NCBI GenBank assembly: GCA_963704705.1
Contig: OY969931.1
Location: 960,001 to 992,000 of the forward strand
Origin: an uncultured bacterium
GTDB lineage: Bacteria; Patescibacteriota; Gracilibacteria; UBA1369; PNNO01
Length of the DNA stretch: 32,000 nucleotides
Direction: 5' to 3'
The notes below the pieces were generated by a model. That model made no database searches. It saw nothing but the letters and a program-made list of their open reading frames with translations, and was not told the origin of the DNA. The position numbers were made by a program, and so were the translations under genes. Shown piece by piece: positions 2,065 through 29,749 of this stretch. Within the stretch, counting starts at the first letter, position 1, and each line of letters opens with the position of its first letter.

Positions 2065-3984
2065 ATGAATCCCGAAACTAGTAATATGCAAATCGTTGCA
2101 TATCCTGATATGTCAGAAATGCCAGAAGAAACATTGCAAAAACTTGCTGCAAAAGAGAGGGAATGGTTTGGATACGGCATGGAAGGAGCAGGGTTTGGAG
2201 AATATGCAATTTGTTCAAATCCTGAATGCAGAAGGATACTTTCTGTTGAAGATGCTTATCCTCAGGTTAATGAAGCAACTGGTAAATATATTCCATTAGC
2301 TGAGCTTGAGAAGGATGGAATTAATCTTCCATGCTGTCCGGATTGCAGTGGACCTATGGAACCGCTGCTTGATCCTGCTTTTTTCCCGGAATATTTAAGA
2401 TTATATTTCTCTCAAAAAGTGTATGGGGCGTTGCTAATGGATGGTGAAGAAGTTTTAGGATCAGTATCGGCATTTACTGCACCATTTGAAATGGCTTTTG
2501 AAGATAATATAAATTATAGAGAAGGTTATGATATAGATAATGTTATAGAAAGAATTTCTAAACTTACCAATAGAACTCCTGATGAAATTAGAAATCAGGT
2601 AGTTGTTTGTTGTAATAGAATCGCTATAGATCATAGTGCTCGTGGAAACAAATTAATTCCTGAACTAATTAACAAAACACTTAGTATTAATCCTGAAAAT
2701 GATGACTTGCCATTTATAGCTGACGTTAAACGCCCAGGCAATTTATATGGAATGTTCAATGCATATAGCGCTCATCCAATACAAGAAGATGAATTCAGAG
2801 GAAGTTTTATTTATGCAGAAGAAACTTCACAAATTAGAGAAGGAACTGGATTATCAAATGAAGAATTTGAAAAAAGATTAAAACAAATTGCTGAAAAAAT
2901 TAAAAGAAATCAACAAGAGAGACTTCAAGAAGAAGGTTTAAAACCTTTTCATGCAATTGGTGTGCCTTTATTAAGAGAGGTTTTTGGAAATCAAGGTGAA
3001 ATGCGCGGCAATACTTTATTTAATGTTTTCGAGAATCATGAAGGTAAAAAGTTTCAAGTTGAAGTATTTGACTCAGATACAGTTAATGAAGAAAAATTAA
3101 AACAATTTACTAATACTTTTAGACTTATTTTCAACAATAAATTTAGTGGTCAGTTTCTTGTTCATCCAAGTACAGTTAAACCAATTTCAGTAAAAGATGT
3201 ATTGAGCTTAAAAGCTGAACAATTACTAGAAATTTTTGATTTAAATCCAAAGGAGTTAGAAGAATTGTTAGAAGCATTAAAGGCAAATCCAAAACAATTA
3301 GTTGATTTAAATATTCTCGATAGATGTAATCCTGATAAATATCCAAAAAATCCTGGAACCCATGAATCAGCAGTGTTCTGGCATAATCCAGAAAAAGTGC
3401 TAGAAATATTTAAAGAAAAAGCAAAAAAAAATGCACACTTTGCTGTAATAAAGAGATTAGACATTGAAAAAGAAGTTGGGTCACCTGATACAGAATATGC
3501 AGGAATTATGTTTGGAAGAAAATGTACGATTCGTGAACTTTTTGAATCAGAAGAATGGGAAAATCCTATTTTATATTCTGGTATTAGAGTTCCTGAAAAT
3601 TTAAGAGATTTTGATGATTTTCTTAATAAATTAAATGAAAAATTAATTGCTAATGCTTATGAACCAGTTAATGAAGATAGTGAAGTATATGGATGGAACT
3701 GTATTGCGACACATCCTGATGTACGAGGATTAGAACATTTAATGAGATTAACTACAGCATTTTTTAATTCAATTCCTAAGAAAATGATAAATGAATTGAT
3801 GGTTATTGGTGAAACCCAGGTCTCATCAAGAGCACATCTACTTTTTCAAACAGCAGGTGGTCTTGATATAACAGGAGTGCTTACAGAATCTGATGAAGTT
3901 CAAAACGGAGATCCAGTTATTATTGTGGGACCATTAAAAAGAGCTTATAAAAACTTTGCAATTCCATTAGAAATGTTTGTATAA
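2065..3984 (+). CDS. Uncharacterised 639-aa protein: N-terminal Cys cluster (zinc-ribbon-like) plus two GNAT-like acyltransferase-type halves joined by a charged helical linker
   Basis: Long ORF starting 6 nt after the decarboxylase stop. Cys cluster C50-x4-C55 ... C90-C91-x2-C94. Two segments resemble GNAT motif A (beta4-alpha3): IAIDHSARGNKLIPELINKTL (about nt 2620) and CIATHPDVRGLEHLMRLTTAFF (about nt 3710-3775). The domain call is from motif resemblance only. Confidence 0.7.
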   Translation: MNPETSNMQIVAYPDMSEMPEETLQKLAAKEREWFGYGMEGAGFGEYAICSNPECRRILSVEDAYPQVNEATGKYIPLAELEKDGINLPCCPDCSGPMEPLLDPAFFPEYLRLYFSQKVYGALLMDGEEVLGSVSAFTAPFEMAFEDNINYREGYDIDNVIERISKLTNRTPDEIRNQVVVCCNRIAIDHSARGNKLIPELINKTLSINPENDDLPFIADVKRPGNLYGMFNAYSAHPIQEDEFRGSFIYAEETSQIREGTGLSNEEFEKRLKQIAEKIKRNQQERLQEEGLKPFHAIGVPLLREVFGNQGEMRGNTLFNVFENHEGKKFQVEVFDSDTVNEEKLKQFTNTFRLIFNNKFSGQFLVHPSTVKPISVKDVLSLKAEQLLEIFDLNPKELEELLEALKANPKQLVDLNILDRCNPDKYPKNPGTHESAVFWHNPEKVLEIFKEKAKKNAHFAVIKRLDIEKEVGSPDTEYAGIMFGRKCTIRELFESEEWENPILYSGIRVPENLRDFDDFLNKLNEKLIANAYEPVNEDSEVYGWNCIATHPDVRGLEHLMRLTTAFFNSIPKKMINELMVIGETQVSSRAHLLFQTAGGLDITGVLTESDEVQNGDPVIIVGPLKRAYKNFAIPLEMFV

Positions 3985-7314: not shown

Positions 7315-7899
7315 ATGAATCAATTAAATGAAAAAGATATAATCAGGCATTACTTATTAAACTTATTAACCATACTTAATATTGAATTATCAAATTTCAA
7401 TATTAAGCGAGCAGATAAAAGAAAAATTGATGATTTAATTGGTGTCGCAAGTATACTAATTGCAAATGAGAATATATTTTTAAATGAAAAATCATCATTA
7501 TTTATTCAGGATGTTCATTTAAAGGACCTTATTGAGCTAAATTGCGAAATTTTAAAATCAGAAATACAAAAGAAAAAAATTTCCATCAATTTGCCACAAG
7601 ATGATTTGATAATTAAAGTTGATAAATTCTATTTTAGCGAAGCATTAAAATATTTATTAAAAGAATTAATTAAAGATAATACTAAAATTTCTTTTGGAAT
7701 TAATAAAACAGATAACAAACTCGAGATTATTCATGAAAGAAAAACCGAATTACCTCAACCAGCAGATAAAATCATCGATTTATTAAAAACAAAAAACTTC
7801 CAAAAAGATGATATTACTTTTCAATTAGCATGCACTATTATCAAAATACATAATATAAAATTAAGCCTGAAAAATAATTGTATTATTATGTCTTTTTAA
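7315..7899 (+). CDS. Degenerate histidine-kinase-like protein (DHp-like helix with His, CA-like domain lacking G-boxes); possible Spo0B-type phosphotransferase
   Basis: 194 aa, no TM segment. N-terminal IIRHYLLNLLTIL resembles an H-box helix. ALKYLLKELIKDN resembles an N-box. No DxGxG or GxGxG ATP-lid motifs are present. Divergently placed next to the two regulators. Confidence 0.55.
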   Translation: MNQLNEKDIIRHYLLNLLTILNIELSNFNIKRADKRKIDDLIGVASILIANENIFLNEKSSLFIQDVHLKDLIELNCEILKSEIQKKKISINLPQDDLIIKVDKFYFSEALKYLLKELIKDNTKISFGINKTDNKLEIIHERKTELPQPADKIIDLLKTKNFQKDDITFQLACTIIKIHNIKLSLKNNCIIMSF

Positions 7900-9846: not shown

Positions 9847-10215
9847 TTAAAACATATCTTCGAGATCCATCACTACCCATTGATCTGATGTATCCGGTTT
9901 ACGTTTAAGTTTTATTTCTATAATAGGCCTTGAAAGCTGTTCAAAACTTTTACTATGCCCGCCTCCAACAACACGAACTGTTTTAACAATGCGTGTAATT
10001 TCAAAATCCATTCTGTTTAAATTAAATTCCACAACACGTTGTTCCCCTATTTCAACCTCTTCTCTTCCAAGGTCAATAAATAAAGGACTAGTTTCATCTT
10101 TAACGATATCAGCACCTGCTGCTTTTACTCTTTTAATTATTTCTTCAAAACGATCTTCCGCTGCAGAGCCTGCGGTATCATCAATTTCTCTCATTGGTTT
10201 GTCATCTGAATGCAC
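9847..10215 (-). CDS. Hypothetical small acidic cytoplasmic protein, first gene of the NOX-like operon
   Basis: 122-aa ORF with GTG start at 10215 (alternative ATG at about 10194). Ends 16 nt before the FRD gene. Visibly higher GC than its neighbours. I recognise no motif. Confidence 0.6.
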   Translation of the reverse strand: MHSDDKPMREIDDTAGSAAEDRFEEIIKRVKAAGADIVKDETSPLFIDLGREEVEIGEQRVVEFNLNRMDFEITRIVKTVRVVGGGHSKSFEQLSRPIIEIKLKRKPDTSDQWVVMDLEDMF

Positions 10216-10233: not shown

Positions 10234-10307
10234 TGGCTGGGGATGAGGGATTCGAACCCCCGATCACGGGACCAGAACCCGTTGCCTTACCACTTGGCCA
10301 ATCCCCA
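10234..10307 (-). tRNA. tRNA-Gln (anticodon CUG), CCA encoded
   Basis: Reverse complement reads TGGGGATTGGCCAAGTGGTAAGGCAACGGGTTCTGGTCCCGTGATCGGGGGTTCGAATCCCTCATCCCCAGCCA. Acceptor TGGGGAT/ATCCCCA, anticodon stem ACGGG/CCCGT with loop TTCTGGT, T-arm GGGGGTTCGAATCCCTC. The 5' half closely resembles E. coli tRNA-Gln. Confidence 0.9.
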
Positions 10308-10310
10308 CTG

Positions 10311-10916
10311 TTAATTACTAATTGTTACAATTTCATCCAAAATCACTTTTTCAACATCATGTACGCATTTTGATATTTGATTGTTCAAACTTGGAATCTG
10401 ATAATCGCTGATTTCCCCTCCTATTTCAAACTCCCGTTCAGCGCTTTCCATTCTTCTTTTTATCTCTTCTTCGGGTAGTTTACCACGTTTTTGGATTCGA
10501 TCAATTAAATCCTTTTTATTAGGTACAGTTAGAAATATTGAAACCAAATTATTTTTCGGGATTACTTTTTGAATAGATTCCAATCCCTGCATATCTACTT
10601 CTCTTATGATAATTCTTCCCTGCTTAAGAGCTTCAATAATCGGAGCCTTTATTGTTCCATAATATTCTTCCTGGTGCACAATGGCATATTCCAATAAATC
10701 CTTTTCTTCTATCATTTTTTCAAATTCTTTTCTTGAAATGAAATGATATGTTTCACCATCTTTCTCTCCTGGACGCGGATCTCGTGTTGTTGCTGAAATC
10801 GGATATATCCATTCAGGATGAAGTTTCTTTAAATGGCTTATAACAGTACCTTTTCCAACACCCGAAGGTCCTGCGATAATAAATAATTTTCCGGTTAAGT
10901 CAGTATCTTCAATCAT
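10311..10916 (-). CDS. gmk: Guanylate kinase
   Basis: P-loop GPSGVGKGT, TTRDPRPGEKDGETYHF, EYAIVHQEEYYGT. The stop lies 3 nt from the tRNA-Gln 5' end. Confidence 0.95.
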   Translation of the reverse strand: MIEDTDLTGKLFIIAGPSGVGKGTVISHLKKLHPEWIYPISATTRDPRPGEKDGETYHFISRKEFEKMIEEKDLLEYAIVHQEEYYGTIKAPIIEALKQGRIIIREVDMQGLESIQKVIPKNNLVSIFLTVPNKKDLIDRIQKRGKLPEEEIKRRMESAEREFEIGGEISDYQIPSLNNQISKCVHDVEKVILDEIVTISN

Positions 10917-10974
10917 ATAATTAAATTATTAGCTTTTTTATTATAAATACTTTAAAAAAAATTGCCAGTGTGTA

Positions 10975-11003
10975 TTGAATTTTCCCCTTTTTAATGCTAT
11001 AAT
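10975..11003 (+). promoter_or_regulatory. Sigma-70-type promoter (TTGAAT - 17 nt - TATAAT) pointing into the non-coding region
   Basis: Sequence gtgtaTTGAATtttcccctttttaatgcTATAATgtaaag. It has a perfect -10 and optimal 17-nt spacing. No protein gene lies downstream on the + strand. Confidence 0.4.
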
Positions 11004-11009
11004 GTAAAG

Positions 11010-11548
11010 ATTTTATGATATTTGAAATACAGAAACAAATACGCACATTAAAACAAAAGCCGGGAGAGAGCGGATTATGAAGCCATTTCATAATCTTTCC
11101 CCTCCTTACTTTTCGATGGCAGCCGGCTACTGCCACTTGAGAAGTATTCTCCTTTATTAGGCCTTTACGGCCTAATATAAGGTAGCTTCTTTGATTCACA
11201 AAAATCAAAAACAAAAGAAACAAAAAAAATTGCTCCATATTTATATGGGCAACCAAAACAAAAACACAAAAAAAGACGATGGTGGATCCGTCAAAAAATA
11301 ATCCATCCAAAGAACGGTAAGGAGATGGTCTTAATTTAAGTTTTCTTAAAAGACCACCCGTAACAAGACATTTTAGTCGAACTTGTTACACCGCTCTCTG
11401 ATCCCATAGCGTCCCAGTTACTTTAAGTAATTGATGTGGCACTATGAGAGATTAAAGAGCTATATGTTGAGGCGTACCTCACACTTCTGCATCTCCACCG
11501 CTTAACGCGGCCTTGCATGTGTAAAAGGGGTGCGCCTCAAAATTTTTA
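11010..11548. ncRNA. Candidate large structured non-coding RNA of unknown class (strand unresolved)
   Basis: GC-enriched island in an AT-rich genome carrying at least 10 clean stem-loops. Examples: 11073-79/11089-95, 11118-22/11130-34, 11139-43/11147-51, 11156-63/11169-76, 11326-32/11350-56, 11361-67/11382-88, 11394-11409/11442-50, and a long multi-helix hairpin closed by 11467-74/11533-40. The stem-loops are separated by A-rich (+ strand) linkers. Details are in the findings. Confidence 0.4.
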
Positions 11549-12112
11549 TGCTTTGCCTAAAGTTTTATCCCCTTCTTTCCAACCCACAGGACATAAATCA
11601 CCTGTCTGAAAGGCTTTTATTAATCTGATTAATTCATCAATGTTTCTGCCGATATTTAAATCATTTACCGTATAAGATTTTAGAATTCCTTCCGGATCGA
11701 TAATAAATGCGCCTCTTAAACTTATGCCTTTTTCAGGTTCCAAAACATTATACGAGTGACTTACAAATTTTGTAATATCACTTAACAATGGATAATTTAA
11801 TTCTCCAATGTCAGTTTTTGACCAGGCTTCATGTGAATAAACACTATCCACACTAACCCCAAGAATCTGGCAATTAACTTCTTTAAACTCTTTGTGTTTT
11901 TTACTTAATTCAACAAGTTCAGTTGGACAAACAAAAGTAAAATCAAGCGGGTAAAAGAAAAGTAAAACCCACTGACCTTTGTAATCATCCAAATGATAAT
12001 TTTTCATACTCCCCTTAAAAAAACCTTCCATTTTAAATTTTGGAGCAAGTTTTCCTATTTGGAGACAACAATCAGATTCACAACATGAATCTTCATCATT
12101 ACAACATCCCAT
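11546..12112 (-). CDS. Typical 2-Cys peroxiredoxin (AhpC/Tsa family) with an unusual Cys-rich N-terminal extension
   Basis: IGKLAPKF, peroxidatic FTFVCPTE, resolving-Cys region GDLCPVGW. The N-terminus is MGCCNDEDSCCESDCC. Confidence 0.9.
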   Translation of the reverse strand: MGCCNDEDSCCESDCCLQIGKLAPKFKMEGFFKGSMKNYHLDDYKGQWVLLFFYPLDFTFVCPTELVELSKKHKEFKEVNCQILGVSVDSVYSHEAWSKTDIGELNYPLLSDITKFVSHSYNVLEPEKGISLRGAFIIDPEGILKSYTVNDLNIGRNIDELIRLIKAFQTGDLCPVGWKEGDKTLGKA

Positions 12113-12249: not shown

Positions 12250-12693
12250 ATGGCCTCAGTATTAATTATATTTGGAAGTACAGGTGGCAACACCGAACTT
12301 GTAACAGATAAAGTTACTGAGATTTTAACATCAAAAAAACATAAAGTTACTGTTCAACGAGCGGAATTAACAAACGAATCAGACCTGACAAAGTTCAAAT
12401 ATATAATTTTGTGTTCTTCAACATATGGACAAGGACTCTTACAGGAATACATGCGTAAATTTATGTATGAACTAAAATCGTTAAAGGGGAAAAAATGTGC
12501 TGTAATAGGGCTTGGTGACCCAAAATATAATATTGAATATGTAGTTGAAGCTGCGAAAATACTTGAAAATGATGTTAAAGAAAAAGGCGGAGAACTTTTA
12601 CAAACAGCTCTTCGAATTATAAAATCCCCTGTGCCCCATTTAGATACAATGGTTAAAGACTGGGCTGAAAAATTATCTAAGTTACTTAAATAA
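12250..12693 (+). CDS. Short-chain flavodoxin
   Basis: 147 aa. FMN phosphate loop IIFGSTGGNTE. STYGQG and GLGD motifs. The stop abuts the next ATG (12694). Confidence 0.85.
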   Translation: MASVLIIFGSTGGNTELVTDKVTEILTSKKHKVTVQRAELTNESDLTKFKYIILCSSTYGQGLLQEYMRKFMYELKSLKGKKCAVIGLGDPKYNIEYVVEAAKILENDVKEKGGELLQTALRIIKSPVPHLDTMVKDWAEKLSKLLK

Positions 12694-20241: not shown

Positions 20242-20280
20242 AAATTTTTTATTAATTAATTACATTATATTCATAATGAT

Positions 20281-20317
20281 TTTAAAAAAATACCCCTTTA
20301 TATAAAAAAGGGGTATT
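20281..20317 (-). terminator. Rho-independent terminator of the H1-like gene
   Basis: On the minus strand: AAATACCCCTTT-loop-AAAGGGGTATT followed by TTTTTTT. Confidence 0.6.
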
Positions 20318-20336
20318 TCATTATTAAAAAAAACTA

Positions 20337-20519
20337 CTATTTTCTTTTTGTAGTTTTTTTCTTAGCAGCAGTTTTCTTTTTTGGAGCAGCTTTCTTTTTT
20401 GGAGCTGCTTTCTTAACAGCTTTCTTTACCATCTTTTTAGGAGCTGCCTTTTTTTTAGGAGCTGCTTTTTTTACCATTTTTTTAGCTGGCTTTTTAGCCG
20501 CTTTTTTCTTAACTGGCAT
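20337..20519 (-). CDS. Histone-H1-like Lys/Ala/Pro-rich basic protein (putative nucleoid-associated protein)
   Basis: 60 aa made of AAPKKKAAPKK / KKAVKKAAPKKK-type repeats. Has its own terminator and a plausible promoter (TTGATT-16-CATAAT on the minus strand, roughly 20550-20580). Confidence 0.7.
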   Translation of the reverse strand: MPVKKKAAKKPAKKMVKKAAPKKKAAPKKMVKKAVKKAAPKKKAAPKKKTAAKKKTTKRK

Positions 20520-20650
20520 AGTTGATATTTTTTAAATAATACATATCGAAACAATTATGTTCTTTTTAAAAAATAAATCAATATAAAAATGCATAAATAG
20601 CAAATTTATGTTTGTATAAATTTTGAATTATATTAAAAGAATTTTATTAA

Positions 20651-20678
20651 ATACCCCTTGTAAACAGTCACGGGGTAT
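20651..20678 (-). terminator. Hairpin ATACCCC-n14-GGGGTAT, probable terminator of the small Cys-rich ORF
   Basis: Same stem sequence as the terminator at 20281-20317. Lies 13 nt after the small-ORF stop. The U-tract is weak (TTTAATAAAAT on the minus strand). Confidence 0.35.
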
Positions 20679-20690
20679 TTAATTTGTATT

Positions 20691-20789
20691 CTAATTAGTC
20701 CAAATAAATATTTTCTTCATCTCTAATTTTGGTGAATCACATTTAGGGCATAATGGACATTCTTCACCGCATGAACATTGATGTGTCAT
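20691..20789 (-). CDS. Unannotated 32-aa Cys-rich small protein (MTHQCSCGEECPLCPKCDSPKLEMKKIFIWTN)
   Basis: ATG at 20789, TAG at 20691-93. Below the size cut-off of the ORF track. Five Cys in a CxCx3Cx2Cx2C pattern. A promoter-like TTGATG-17-TTTAAT lies upstream on the minus strand and a hairpin lies downstream. Confidence 0.35.
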   Translation of the reverse strand: MTHQCSCGEECPLCPKCDSPKLEMKKIFIWTN

Positions 20790-20857
20790 ATGTTGGTAGT
20801 TACTACTTATTAAAATTAAGATAGTTATTTGCATCAATTTATCTAAAATATATGCTA

Positions 20858-20886
20858 TTGACTATTTAACACATTCATTGTAAGAT
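20858..20886 (+). promoter_or_regulatory. Putative promoter of the DEAD-box helicase gene (TTGACT - 17 nt - TAAGAT)
   Basis: Read directly. The ATG is at 20922. Confidence 0.4.
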
Positions 20887-20921
20887 TATCTCTCGAACAA
20901 ATTAATAATTTTTTTCAAGCC

Positions 20922-29674: not shown

Positions 29675-29749
29675 TGGCTCTCGGGGCCGGGCTCGAACCG
29701 GCAACCCTTCGGTTAACAGCCGAATGCTCTACCATTGAGCTACCCGAGA
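29675..29749 (-). tRNA. tRNA-Asn (anticodon GUU), CCA encoded
   Basis: Reverse complement reads TCTCGGGTAGCTCAATGGTAGAGCATTCGGCTGTTAACCGAAGGGTTGCCGGTTCGAGCCCGGCCCCGAGAGCCA. Acceptor TCTCGGG/CCCGAGA, anticodon stem TTCGG/CCGAA with loop CTGTTAA, T-arm GCCGGTTCGAGCCCGGC. Confidence 0.9.

Follow-up and report, generated by a model that had tools for sequence, protein, structure and literature searches.

The 32,000-nucleotide stretch of contig OY969931.1 (assembly GCA_963704705.1) analysed here, referred to below as the window, derives from an uncultured bacterium of the Patescibacteriota and contains, between the guanylate kinase gene gmk and a peroxiredoxin gene, a gap at 10917-11548 in which a large structured RNA of unknown class had been predicted from the letters alone. 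The comparative analysis reported here supports that proposal: about 47 relatives keep the region as non-coding sequence, its helices carry compensatory changes, and no Rfam 15 model matches it. We put the probability at roughly 0.8 that about 11010-11548 of the + strand is a structured non-coding RNA gene of about 540 nt, representing an undescribed class in Peregrinibacteria/Peribacteria-like bacteria belonging to the candidate phyla radiation (CPR). The locus has the following features:

10234-10307, - strand: tRNA-Gln(CUG), after gmk
10311-10916, - strand: gmk (Pfam Guanylate_kin), bounding the gap on one side
10940-10968, - strand: predicted gmk promoter CTGGCA-17-TATAAT, back-to-back with the RNA promoter
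10975-11003, + strand: predicted RNA promoter, with -35 TTGAAT (10975-80), a 17-nt spacer and extended -10 TGC-TATAAT (10995-11003)
11467-11548, + strand: predicted terminator, a composite 74-nt hairpin (11467-11540) and a U tract (11543-47), mean z = -4.6
11546-12112, - strand: AhpC/TSA peroxiredoxin gene (AhpC-TSA/Redoxin), bounding the gap on the other side
12250-12693, + strand: flavodoxin gene, beyond the peroxiredoxin gene in the window

The G+C enrichment noted in the original prediction is confirmed (0.384 for 11010-11548 and 0.422 for the 3' half, 11300-11548, against 0.311 for the whole window). The region is also the longest stretch free of open reading frames (ORFs), but it is not "by far" the longest gap, as had been stated, since the gap at 20242-20921, which contains a 60-aa Lys/Ala-rich ORF, is of similar size. 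Compared with dinucleotide shuffles, the + strand folds with z = -8.9 (544 nt) and the minus strand with z = -8.6 (632 nt) or -6.2 (279 nt). The sole sizeable ORF in the gap, TTG-initiated on the minus strand, has a low-complexity product of 129 aa and is spurious. The minus strand is the complement of the A-rich linkers described below and is therefore poor in A, so that stop codons are rare and long ORFs arise; such ORFs occur in many family members (median 62 aa across the family), and they were rejected as genes because the likeness between members is due to nucleotide conservation on an A-poor strand. The spacings between invariant anchors are evenly spread over the residues modulo 3 (19, 15 and 14 members), and within the most conserved core the anchor distance varies from 31 to 34 nt, with indels of 1-2 nt. 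No frame is conserved, and the region is not protein-coding.

Relatives were found through gmk: loci that extend upstream of this gene came from 11 GTDB genomes carrying the label Peregrinibacteria, Peribacteria or Patescibacteria, and the identity of their gmk proteins to that of the window is 59-83%. By blastn, the gap was matched in all 11 loci except the most distant one, with 70-85% identity over the region in the close relatives (L002-L009; gmk proteins 70-83%) and only partial matches in L010 and L012. An exact search pattern derived from invariant columns, GTTCTTTGG-N(10-18)-GACG-N(3-9)-CACCNNCGTC (21 specified bases), matched all 12 copies then known, 11 of them from the GTDB genomes and one (L001) duplicating the window, and 72 contigs in a metagenome collection. 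About 35 of these contigs are full homologs by a profile hidden Markov model of the first alignment (E 1e-149 to 1e-19). About 25 are chance matches, a number as expected for 21 specified bases, and are recognised neither by nhmmer nor by the covariance model described below. The single match on a viral contig (L089) is likewise due to chance, and the pattern search yielded no real homolog on viral contigs. Over 47 loci the nhmmer E-values run from 1e-161 to 1e-19, and the host gmk proteins are 46-87% identical to that of the window, a range which implies that the clade is deep. The homologs that the original prediction called for thus exist in the 11 GTDB genomes and about 35 metagenome contigs, and they do not show the region as a decayed protein gene.

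The element occurs in a single copy in the window and in each locus. Among 42 loci, gmk is the divergent upstream gene in 38, while the neighbour on the far side varies and the RNA region persists: a convergent ssb follows downstream in 23 loci, a convergent peroxiredoxin gene (Prx) in nine, and a flavodoxin gene on the same strand in six, so that the next gene (ssb or Prx) is convergent in 32. The tRNA gene seen about 700 bp away in the original prediction is the tRNA-Gln at 10234-10307; nearly all family loci (L002-L088) have tRNA-Gln(CUG) immediately after gmk, and tRNA-Asn(GUU) is found about 3 kb past ssb in many of the more distant loci, the corresponding observation in the window being a tRNA at 29675-29749 (-). 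The RNA is part of a conserved block made of tRNA-Gln, gmk, the RNA, ssb and tRNA-Asn. Group I introns (RF00028; 104 and 57 bits) were seen a few kb from the RNA locus in L079 (3969-4196, -) and L036 (3573-3807, +).

Between the promoter and the terminator, the following elements were delineated on the + strand:

11017-11030: 5' leader box, from the alignment; family consensus G-N-U-C-Y-UUGAAAAC-C, in the window GAUAUUUGAAAUAC
11053-11059: 5' strand of helix P1, AAAAG in the window and CGAAAAG in most of the family; partner 11109-11115
11062-11101: variable hairpin V1, including GATTATG/CATAATC; variable in length and sequence, but stable in most members; mean z = -2.2
11102-11117: hub segment CUCCUUACUUUUCGAU, with the long-range 5' strand at 11102-10 and the P1 3' strand at 11109-15
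11118-11134: hairpin b (GGCAG/CUGCC), 7-nt loop with the kissing partner CGGCUA at 11124-11129
11149-11185: variable hairpin V2, including ATTAGGCC/GGCCTAAT and preceded by a conserved AAAGUAGCCUCC-type segment; mean z = -2.7
11197-11229: A-rich single-stranded linker 1 (…AAAAAUCAAAAACAAAAGAAACAAAAAAAA), in which A is invariant at several positions
11230-11252: variable hairpin V3 (CCATA/TATGG core), stable in all members despite differing sequences; mean z = -4.1
11253-11274: A-rich single-stranded linker 2 (CCAAAACAAAAACACAAAAAAA), from the alignment
11275-11308: hairpin c (GACG/CGUC, 11275-78 with 11289-92), with loop GGUG at 11281-84 and CA(U)CC at 11304-08
11309-11324: invariant junction AAAGAAC (11309-15), then the long-range 3' strand GGUAAGGAG (11316-24)
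11326-11356: variable hairpin V4 (TGGTCTT/AAGACCA), absent in the most divergent members; mean z = -4.0
11360-11389: hairpin e (stem 11360-67 with 11382-89), loop with the kissing partner UAGUCG at 11374-11379
11393-11460: 3' domain, an 11-bp helix P_f (11393-403 with 11450-60) enclosing V5 (11404-49), which has a conserved GAU(A/G) bulge

Two long-range contacts, both absent from the original prediction, hold this layout together. The first is a 9-bp helix between 11102-10 and 11316-24, paired in 97% of alignment cells, with CG<->UA exchanges at two positions and an AU<->GC exchange at a third in one member; the long-range strand pairs with the hub segment in 95-100% of members. The 5' strand of this 9-bp helix is located in the loop that P1 closes, adjoining the P1 3' strand, so that P1 (A-U core paired in 36-40 of 41 members) and the long-range helix form an H-type pseudoknot with the potential for stacking of its two helices. 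The other contact is a 6-bp kissing interaction between the loops of hairpins b (CGGCUA, 11124-29) and e (UAGUCG, 11374-79), paired in 93.8% of cells and present in at least seven distinct matched variants across the family: CGGCUA/UAGCCG, CGACUA/UAGUCG, GCGACAA/UUGUUCGC, CGACGA/UCGUCG, CGAUCA/UGAUCG, CGGCAA/UUGCCG and CGACC/GGUCG. The invariant nucleotides (CUACUUUUCGAU, CACCAAAGAAC and GGUG) cluster at the junctions created by the pseudoknot and the kissing loop, CUACUUUUCGAU in the hub segment being nearly invariant. The loop GGUG of hairpin c could pair with CA(U)CC as a further H-type pseudoknot; all eight pairs of the hairpin and the pseudoknot are invariant in 41 of 41 members, to which the window adds three pairs (GGUGGAU/AUCCAUC), and because of this invariance the sequences are consistent with pairing but give no covariation support. 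The 9-bp long-range complement that had been drawn earlier, 11065-73 with 11391-99, is not conserved; L004, for example, has GGGAGUGUCCCG there.

The hub segment has further candidate partners. The leader box is complementary to its UUUUCGA in 28 of 46 members, and in L046, where the hub reads CUGC instead of CUAC, both candidate partners carry the matching GCAG. A longer P1 that takes in CUAC was considered and set aside, being found only in the distant subgroup at about 60%, against the full long-range helix as the universal pairing. Within the 5' leader, L005 (about 2770-2830) and L006 (about 3795-3835) carry an extra long hairpin (GCATGCGTATGAGT…ACTCATACGCATGC), from which it follows that the leader tolerates insertions.

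The local helices are supported by changes on both sides of their pairs: at three of three tested stem pairs of hairpin b and, in a model-fitted alignment, at five of five basal pairs of V4, eight of nine pairs of the stem of hairpin e, 10 of 11 pairs of P_f and 13 of 13 pairs of V5. P_f is paired in 86% of cells, against 40-47% when the partners are slid. V1-V5 and the terminator form stable folds in nearly all members despite the turnover of their sequences (mean z -2.2 to -4.6). Eight of the ten helices originally drawn are kept in relatives (11073-95, 11118-34, 11156-76, 11235-48, 11275-92, 11326-56, 11361-88 and 11467-11540). The GAGAA/TTCTC helix (11139-51) turned out to be specific to the window, and the ninth helix (11394-11450) survives in its inner parts, its outer CTCTC/GAGAG register giving way to the conserved 11-bp P_f.

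Covariation was quantified on a plain MAFFT alignment of 41 members, for the conserved helices and both pseudoknots, with partners slid by 1-3 columns as controls. In this alignment, 93.7% of cells are paired, against 27-49% in the slid controls, and both-side changes occur at 17 pairs, against 2-8; none of 500 shuffles reaches the observed pairing or covariation score. RNAalifold recovered few pairs on plain MAFFT alignments because the variable hairpins misalign, and a covariance model was therefore used instead. The model of the 3' domain, built only from 19 more distant ("group 2") members, recovered 22 of 22 left-out full-length members on the expected strand, scored two contig-truncated members too, and matched the window at 11304-11462 (+) with 47 bits (E = 3e-10); none of the about 25 chance loci (545 kb) was recovered. 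In the model-fitted alignment of the 3' domain, 92.6% of cells are paired, against 39-48% when slid, with both-side changes at 36 of 38 pairs.

The original prediction had left the strand undecided, citing mixed G-U evidence and a possible minus-strand transcript of about 270 nt. Three independent lines of evidence, namely promoter, terminator and G-U counts, now place the RNA on the + strand, and the shorter minus-strand transcript is rejected. The predicted promoter holds up in the family: TTGnnn-17-TGnTAnnnT is found at the same aligned position in 38 of the 40 members having upstream sequence. At the 3' end, a GC-rich hairpin with a T-rich tail is present on the + strand in 35 of 41 members and on the - strand in 13 of 41, so that the terminal hairpin with its U tract stands as a + strand terminator, which in the window adjoins the stop codon of the peroxiredoxin gene, itself convergent. 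The 74-nt composite hairpin occurs in close relatives; many distant ones have a simple GC hairpin in its place, then a tail of three to seven U. Both ends of the transcript of about 540 nt foreseen in the original prediction are thus marked by conserved signals, with a predicted start near 11010. The G-U evidence is not mixed once relatives are compared; when helices are read on the + strand, G-U pairs far outnumber A-C mismatches: 368 Watson-Crick, 44 G-U and 5 A-C/C-A cells in the long-range helix, and 67 G-U versus 16 A-C in P_f. In addition, V1 of L004 contains G-U pairs valid on the + strand only. The gmk promoter, whose TATAAT and following AAGC are conserved in close relatives, lies 25-50 nt upstream of the gmk start codon, and with this back-to-back promoter of its own gmk does not depend on the region as a leader.

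Two observations concern the ends of the transcription unit. Only about 7 bp separate the -35 element of the gmk promoter from that of the RNA promoter, an arrangement kept in close relatives, and the back-to-back layout suggests possible coupled or competing initiation. The internal sequence of the composite terminator (CACCUCUGC … GCAUGUGAAA) is conserved, with homologs in L040, L073, L088 and L074; the composite hairpin is kept by some distant members and swapped for a plain hairpin in others, and it may be an optional functional domain rather than a terminator alone.

Known RNA families were searched with Rfam 15 by cmscan, at gathering scores for the window and two sets of 18 homolog loci, and at E <= 10 for 10800-11700 (901 nt) and a further 14 homolog loci. 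At gathering scores, the window contains two tRNAs only, and no match was obtained on the RNA region in the window or in 45 homolog-bearing loci. At E <= 10, 10800-11700 returned only noise, consisting of microRNA and eukaryotic families at 11-20 bits, and the 14 homolog loci showed no recurrent sub-threshold family; the matches elsewhere in the homolog loci are tRNAs, the two unrelated group I introns in L079 and L036, and noise. In particular, no covariance model of OLE, ROOL, GOLLD, raiA, HEARO, T-large or IMES matched the region in the window or the 45 loci, and the models of RNase P, transfer-messenger RNA (tmRNA), 6S RNA and signal recognition particle (SRP) RNA, which the original prediction had also singled out for scanning, gave no match either. 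The absence of RNase P, tmRNA, SRP and riboswitch signatures reported there agrees with these scans and with ARAGORN, by which neither the window nor any of 40 homolog loci yielded a tmRNA. In the literature, we found no described large RNA of Peregrinibacteria or CPR that would match. The region does show the general properties of a stand-alone structured non-coding RNA gene: a promoter, a terminator, conserved non-coding sequence and compensatory changes. Mimicry of the 16S 3' end or anti-Shine-Dalgarno (anti-SD) sequence by CCUCCUUA was also considered and rejected, the segment being paired in the long-range helix and reading CCUCCCUA in most members; among three neighbouring genes inspected by eye (gmk, Prx and flavodoxin), none has an SD sequence upstream of its start.

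Several further features of the window are recorded here. The gap at 20242-20921 contains, besides the 60-aa ORF (20337-20519, -), which has AKKPAKK-type repeats resembling a histone H1 or HU tail, a 48-aa Cys-rich ORF (20691-20837, -) and two GC hairpins (about 20293-20318 and 20653-20678). The peroxiredoxin encoded at 11546-12112 has a Cys-rich N-terminal extension, MGCCNDEDSCCESDCCLQIG, retained in L002, L004, L005 and L006 with varying CC/CCC motifs; this extension is unusual for the AhpC/TSA family and may be a metal-binding or lipidation tail. Three ORFs have no Pfam match at E <= 0.001: 2065-3984 (+, 639 aa), 7315-7899 (+, 194 aa) and 9847-10215 (-, 122 aa).

The genomes of CPR bacteria measure about 1 Mb, and many pathways have been lost from them. 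To our knowledge, few bacterial RNAs exceed about 400 nt and have conserved tertiary contacts, and nearly all of these are ribozymes, ribonucleoprotein cores or self-assembling cages. In the mechanism proposed here, the RNA would be transcribed from its own strong extended -10 promoter and stopped at its own intrinsic terminator. It folds into hairpins strung on two A-rich linkers, with a compact core locked by the long-range pseudoknot abutting P1 and by the 6-bp kissing loop between hairpins b and e. It would act in trans, as a protein-binding or ribonucleoprotein scaffold or through a catalytic or ligand-binding core, and the (AAN)n-like A-rich linkers might serve as donors of tertiary A-minor contacts or as exposed protein-binding tracts. 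It is probably neither a base-pairing small RNA nor a cis-regulatory leader: as its transcript is not predicted to overlap that of gmk, it is unlikely to act as an antisense RNA, and its own terminator, together with a convergent downstream gene in most lineages, makes cis-regulation unlikely. A housekeeping role for this lineage is probable, since the RNA is syntenic, present in one copy and retained in genomes of only about 1 Mb. We regard it as quite probable that the RNA is the founding member of a CPR-specific class of large ornate RNAs without kinship to a described family, in which either the invariant junction is an active or binding site, as in a new ribozyme or ribonucleoprotein core, or the kissing loop drives self-assembly of the ROOL/GOLLD kind. 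That a clade in which gmk identity falls to 46% has retained an RNA gene of 0.5 kb with a near-consensus promoter argues for an important function, which may be tied to the unusual and probably host-dependent biology of CPR bacteria. The covariation-backed structure, with its pseudoknot and kissing loop, makes the family ready for experiments and for inclusion in Rfam.

Some points weigh against this interpretation. The metagenome members were gathered by one exact 21-base pattern, which limits the known taxonomic range; the alignment of the 3' domain was fitted to the very structure counted on it; the pseudoknot of hairpin c and parts of P1 are invariant, so that covariation neither supports nor contradicts them; and the alternative partners of the hub segment, which may reflect sequential or alternative folding, leave the exact topology of the core unsettled. 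The transcript ends are read from sequence signals, and the function is wholly inferred. Moreover, it is by missing model matches and differing topology that an extremely diverged housekeeping RNA is set aside. Such an RNA (RNase P RNA, tmRNA, 6S or SRP RNA) missed by current models would also be single-copy, strongly promoted and conserved across a small-genome lineage, and the genes for these four RNAs were not located elsewhere in the same genomes, of which only the loci were scanned. RNase P needed most care, since the divergence of its RNA in CPR is known: detection in 10 of 35 circular genomes required lowered thresholds, although the diverged RNAs were still detected by RF00010 (Lui et al., bioRxiv 10.1101/2020.03.05.979740). 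Here, neither RF00010 nor RF00011 matched the 901 nt or the 14 homolog loci at E <= 10, a threshold above the 5 bits of Lui et al. The AAAGAAC junction followed by the long-range strand loosely recalls ACAGAA and the P4 3' strand of RNase P, but the long-range 5' strand is pyrimidine-rich (CUCCYUAC) and the purine-rich CR-I strand GGAAAGUCC is missing. A mapping by hand (AAAGAAC on ACAGAA, GAAAAGUAG on GGAAAGUCC) was rejected for differing strand polarity and topology. The order P1 5' strand, hairpin, long-range 5' strand, P1 3' strand makes a pseudoknot rather than the nested P2/P3/P4 arrangement; the ends of the RNA are unpaired, and its 3' end is a terminator hairpin. For tmRNA, the region offers neither an Rfam match nor a tRNA-like domain nor a conserved ORF that could serve as tag frame; the tmRNA-like strings GGGAUCAAAGAGCGG, UUCGACU and UCCACCA lie on the minus strand, opposite to the RNA, and no tRNA-like domain can be drawn from them. 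A length of about 540 nt, at least 10 separate hairpins, a pseudoknot and a kissing loop, together with the absence of Rfam 6S matches, are unlike 6S RNA, and the layout is equally unlike SRP RNA, whose Rfam models did not match the window region or the 14 homologs at E <= 10. A missed housekeeping RNA of these kinds is quite unlikely.

A cis-acting leader, present or ancestral, controlling a flavodoxin and 2-oxoacid:ferredoxin oxidoreductase operon through the terminal terminator would account for the same-strand flavodoxin gene next to the RNA in six loci (L003, L007, L008, L009, L017 and L026), the more so as the peroxiredoxin gene of the window looks inserted between the RNA and the flavodoxin gene and the hub, through its alternative pairings, could work as a switch. 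This explanation is very unlikely in view of the convergent ssb or Prx in 32 of 42 loci, the lack of a flavodoxin neighbour in all deepest-branching members, and a size of 500 nt with a kissing loop and pseudoknots, which far exceeds known riboswitches; the opposite neighbour, gmk, is divergent and is served by a promoter of its own. We consider it highly improbable that the minus strand is the functional one, either as a 5' leader or riboswitch of gmk with terminators or as a 270-nt RNA after the peroxiredoxin gene. That strand folds well too, and it has two hairpins followed by U runs (11317-11303 and 11292-11275) and a perfect TAAGGAGG 9 nt before an ATG at 11091. These hairpin-plus-U-run signals, however, are complements of the A-rich linkers preceding hairpins, and the SD-like GGAGG is the mere complement of a helix strand. 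The small ORF starting at 11091 was rejected as a gene, its ATG being absent in L004, L005, L009 and L010 and its peptide not conserved; the G-U excess, the conserved + strand signals and the separate gmk promoter speak for the other strand. Finally, the density of hairpins and the long minus-strand ORFs could recall a protein gene in decay, a gene for a small protein, or a mobile or repeat element such as a cluster of hairpins of the MITE (miniature inverted-repeat transposable element) or REP (repetitive extragenic palindrome) type. Compensatory substitutions in the helices, indels in the most conserved core with no frame kept, ORFs that follow from an A-poor strand, and a single syntenic copy, with no second copy in the window or any locus and no real homolog on the viral contigs searched, make such an origin extremely unlikely.

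The closest analogues of the window RNA in kind are OLE, ROOL, GOLLD and raiA, which are large, ornate and lineage-restricted RNAs. More superficial is the likeness to the protein-sponge RNAs CrcZ and CrcY, which measure about 400-500 nt and have repeated A-rich (AAN)n tracts between hairpins; it is a resemblance only, as CrcZ lacks a conserved core of pseudoknot and kissing loop, and we know of no Hfq or Crc partner in the host genomes of the window RNA. RNase P RNA shares a pseudoknotted multi-helix core and a long-range helix after an A-rich invariant strand (AAAGAAC here, ACAGAA there), but the window RNA differs from it in lacking the CR-I motif and the pairing of the 5' and 3' ends and in its strand order and topology. 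The raiA motif RNA is similarly a stand-alone structured RNA of the abundant type with a pseudoknotted core; it is about 200 nt long, occurs in Firmicutes and Actinobacteria, and its model does not match. OLE RNA (RF01071) is nearer in size (about 600 nt, against about 540 nt here), and the two have in common many hairpins and A-rich single-stranded segments that are conserved; both are stand-alone genes confined to one lineage each and presumably ribonucleoproteins. OLE belongs, however, to anaerobic Firmicutes rather than CPR, its model does not match, no oapA-like gene adjoins the window RNA, and OLE has no reported counterpart of the b-e kissing loop combined with the pseudoknot of P1 and the long-range helix. 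ROOL and GOLLD are also large multi-hairpin RNAs near tRNA genes, with loop-loop pairings first noticed as covariation; in contrast to them, the window RNA is chromosomal, single-copy and syntenic with gmk, is not linked to phages or prophages, and is not matched by their models. By cryo-electron microscopy, the kissing loops of ROOL and GOLLD proved to be intermolecular bridges in homo-oligomeric, RNA-only cages, and covariation cannot distinguish intramolecular from intermolecular pairing (PMC12286853). By analogy with ROOL and GOLLD, the kissing loop between hairpins b and e could likewise act as an intermolecular bridge.

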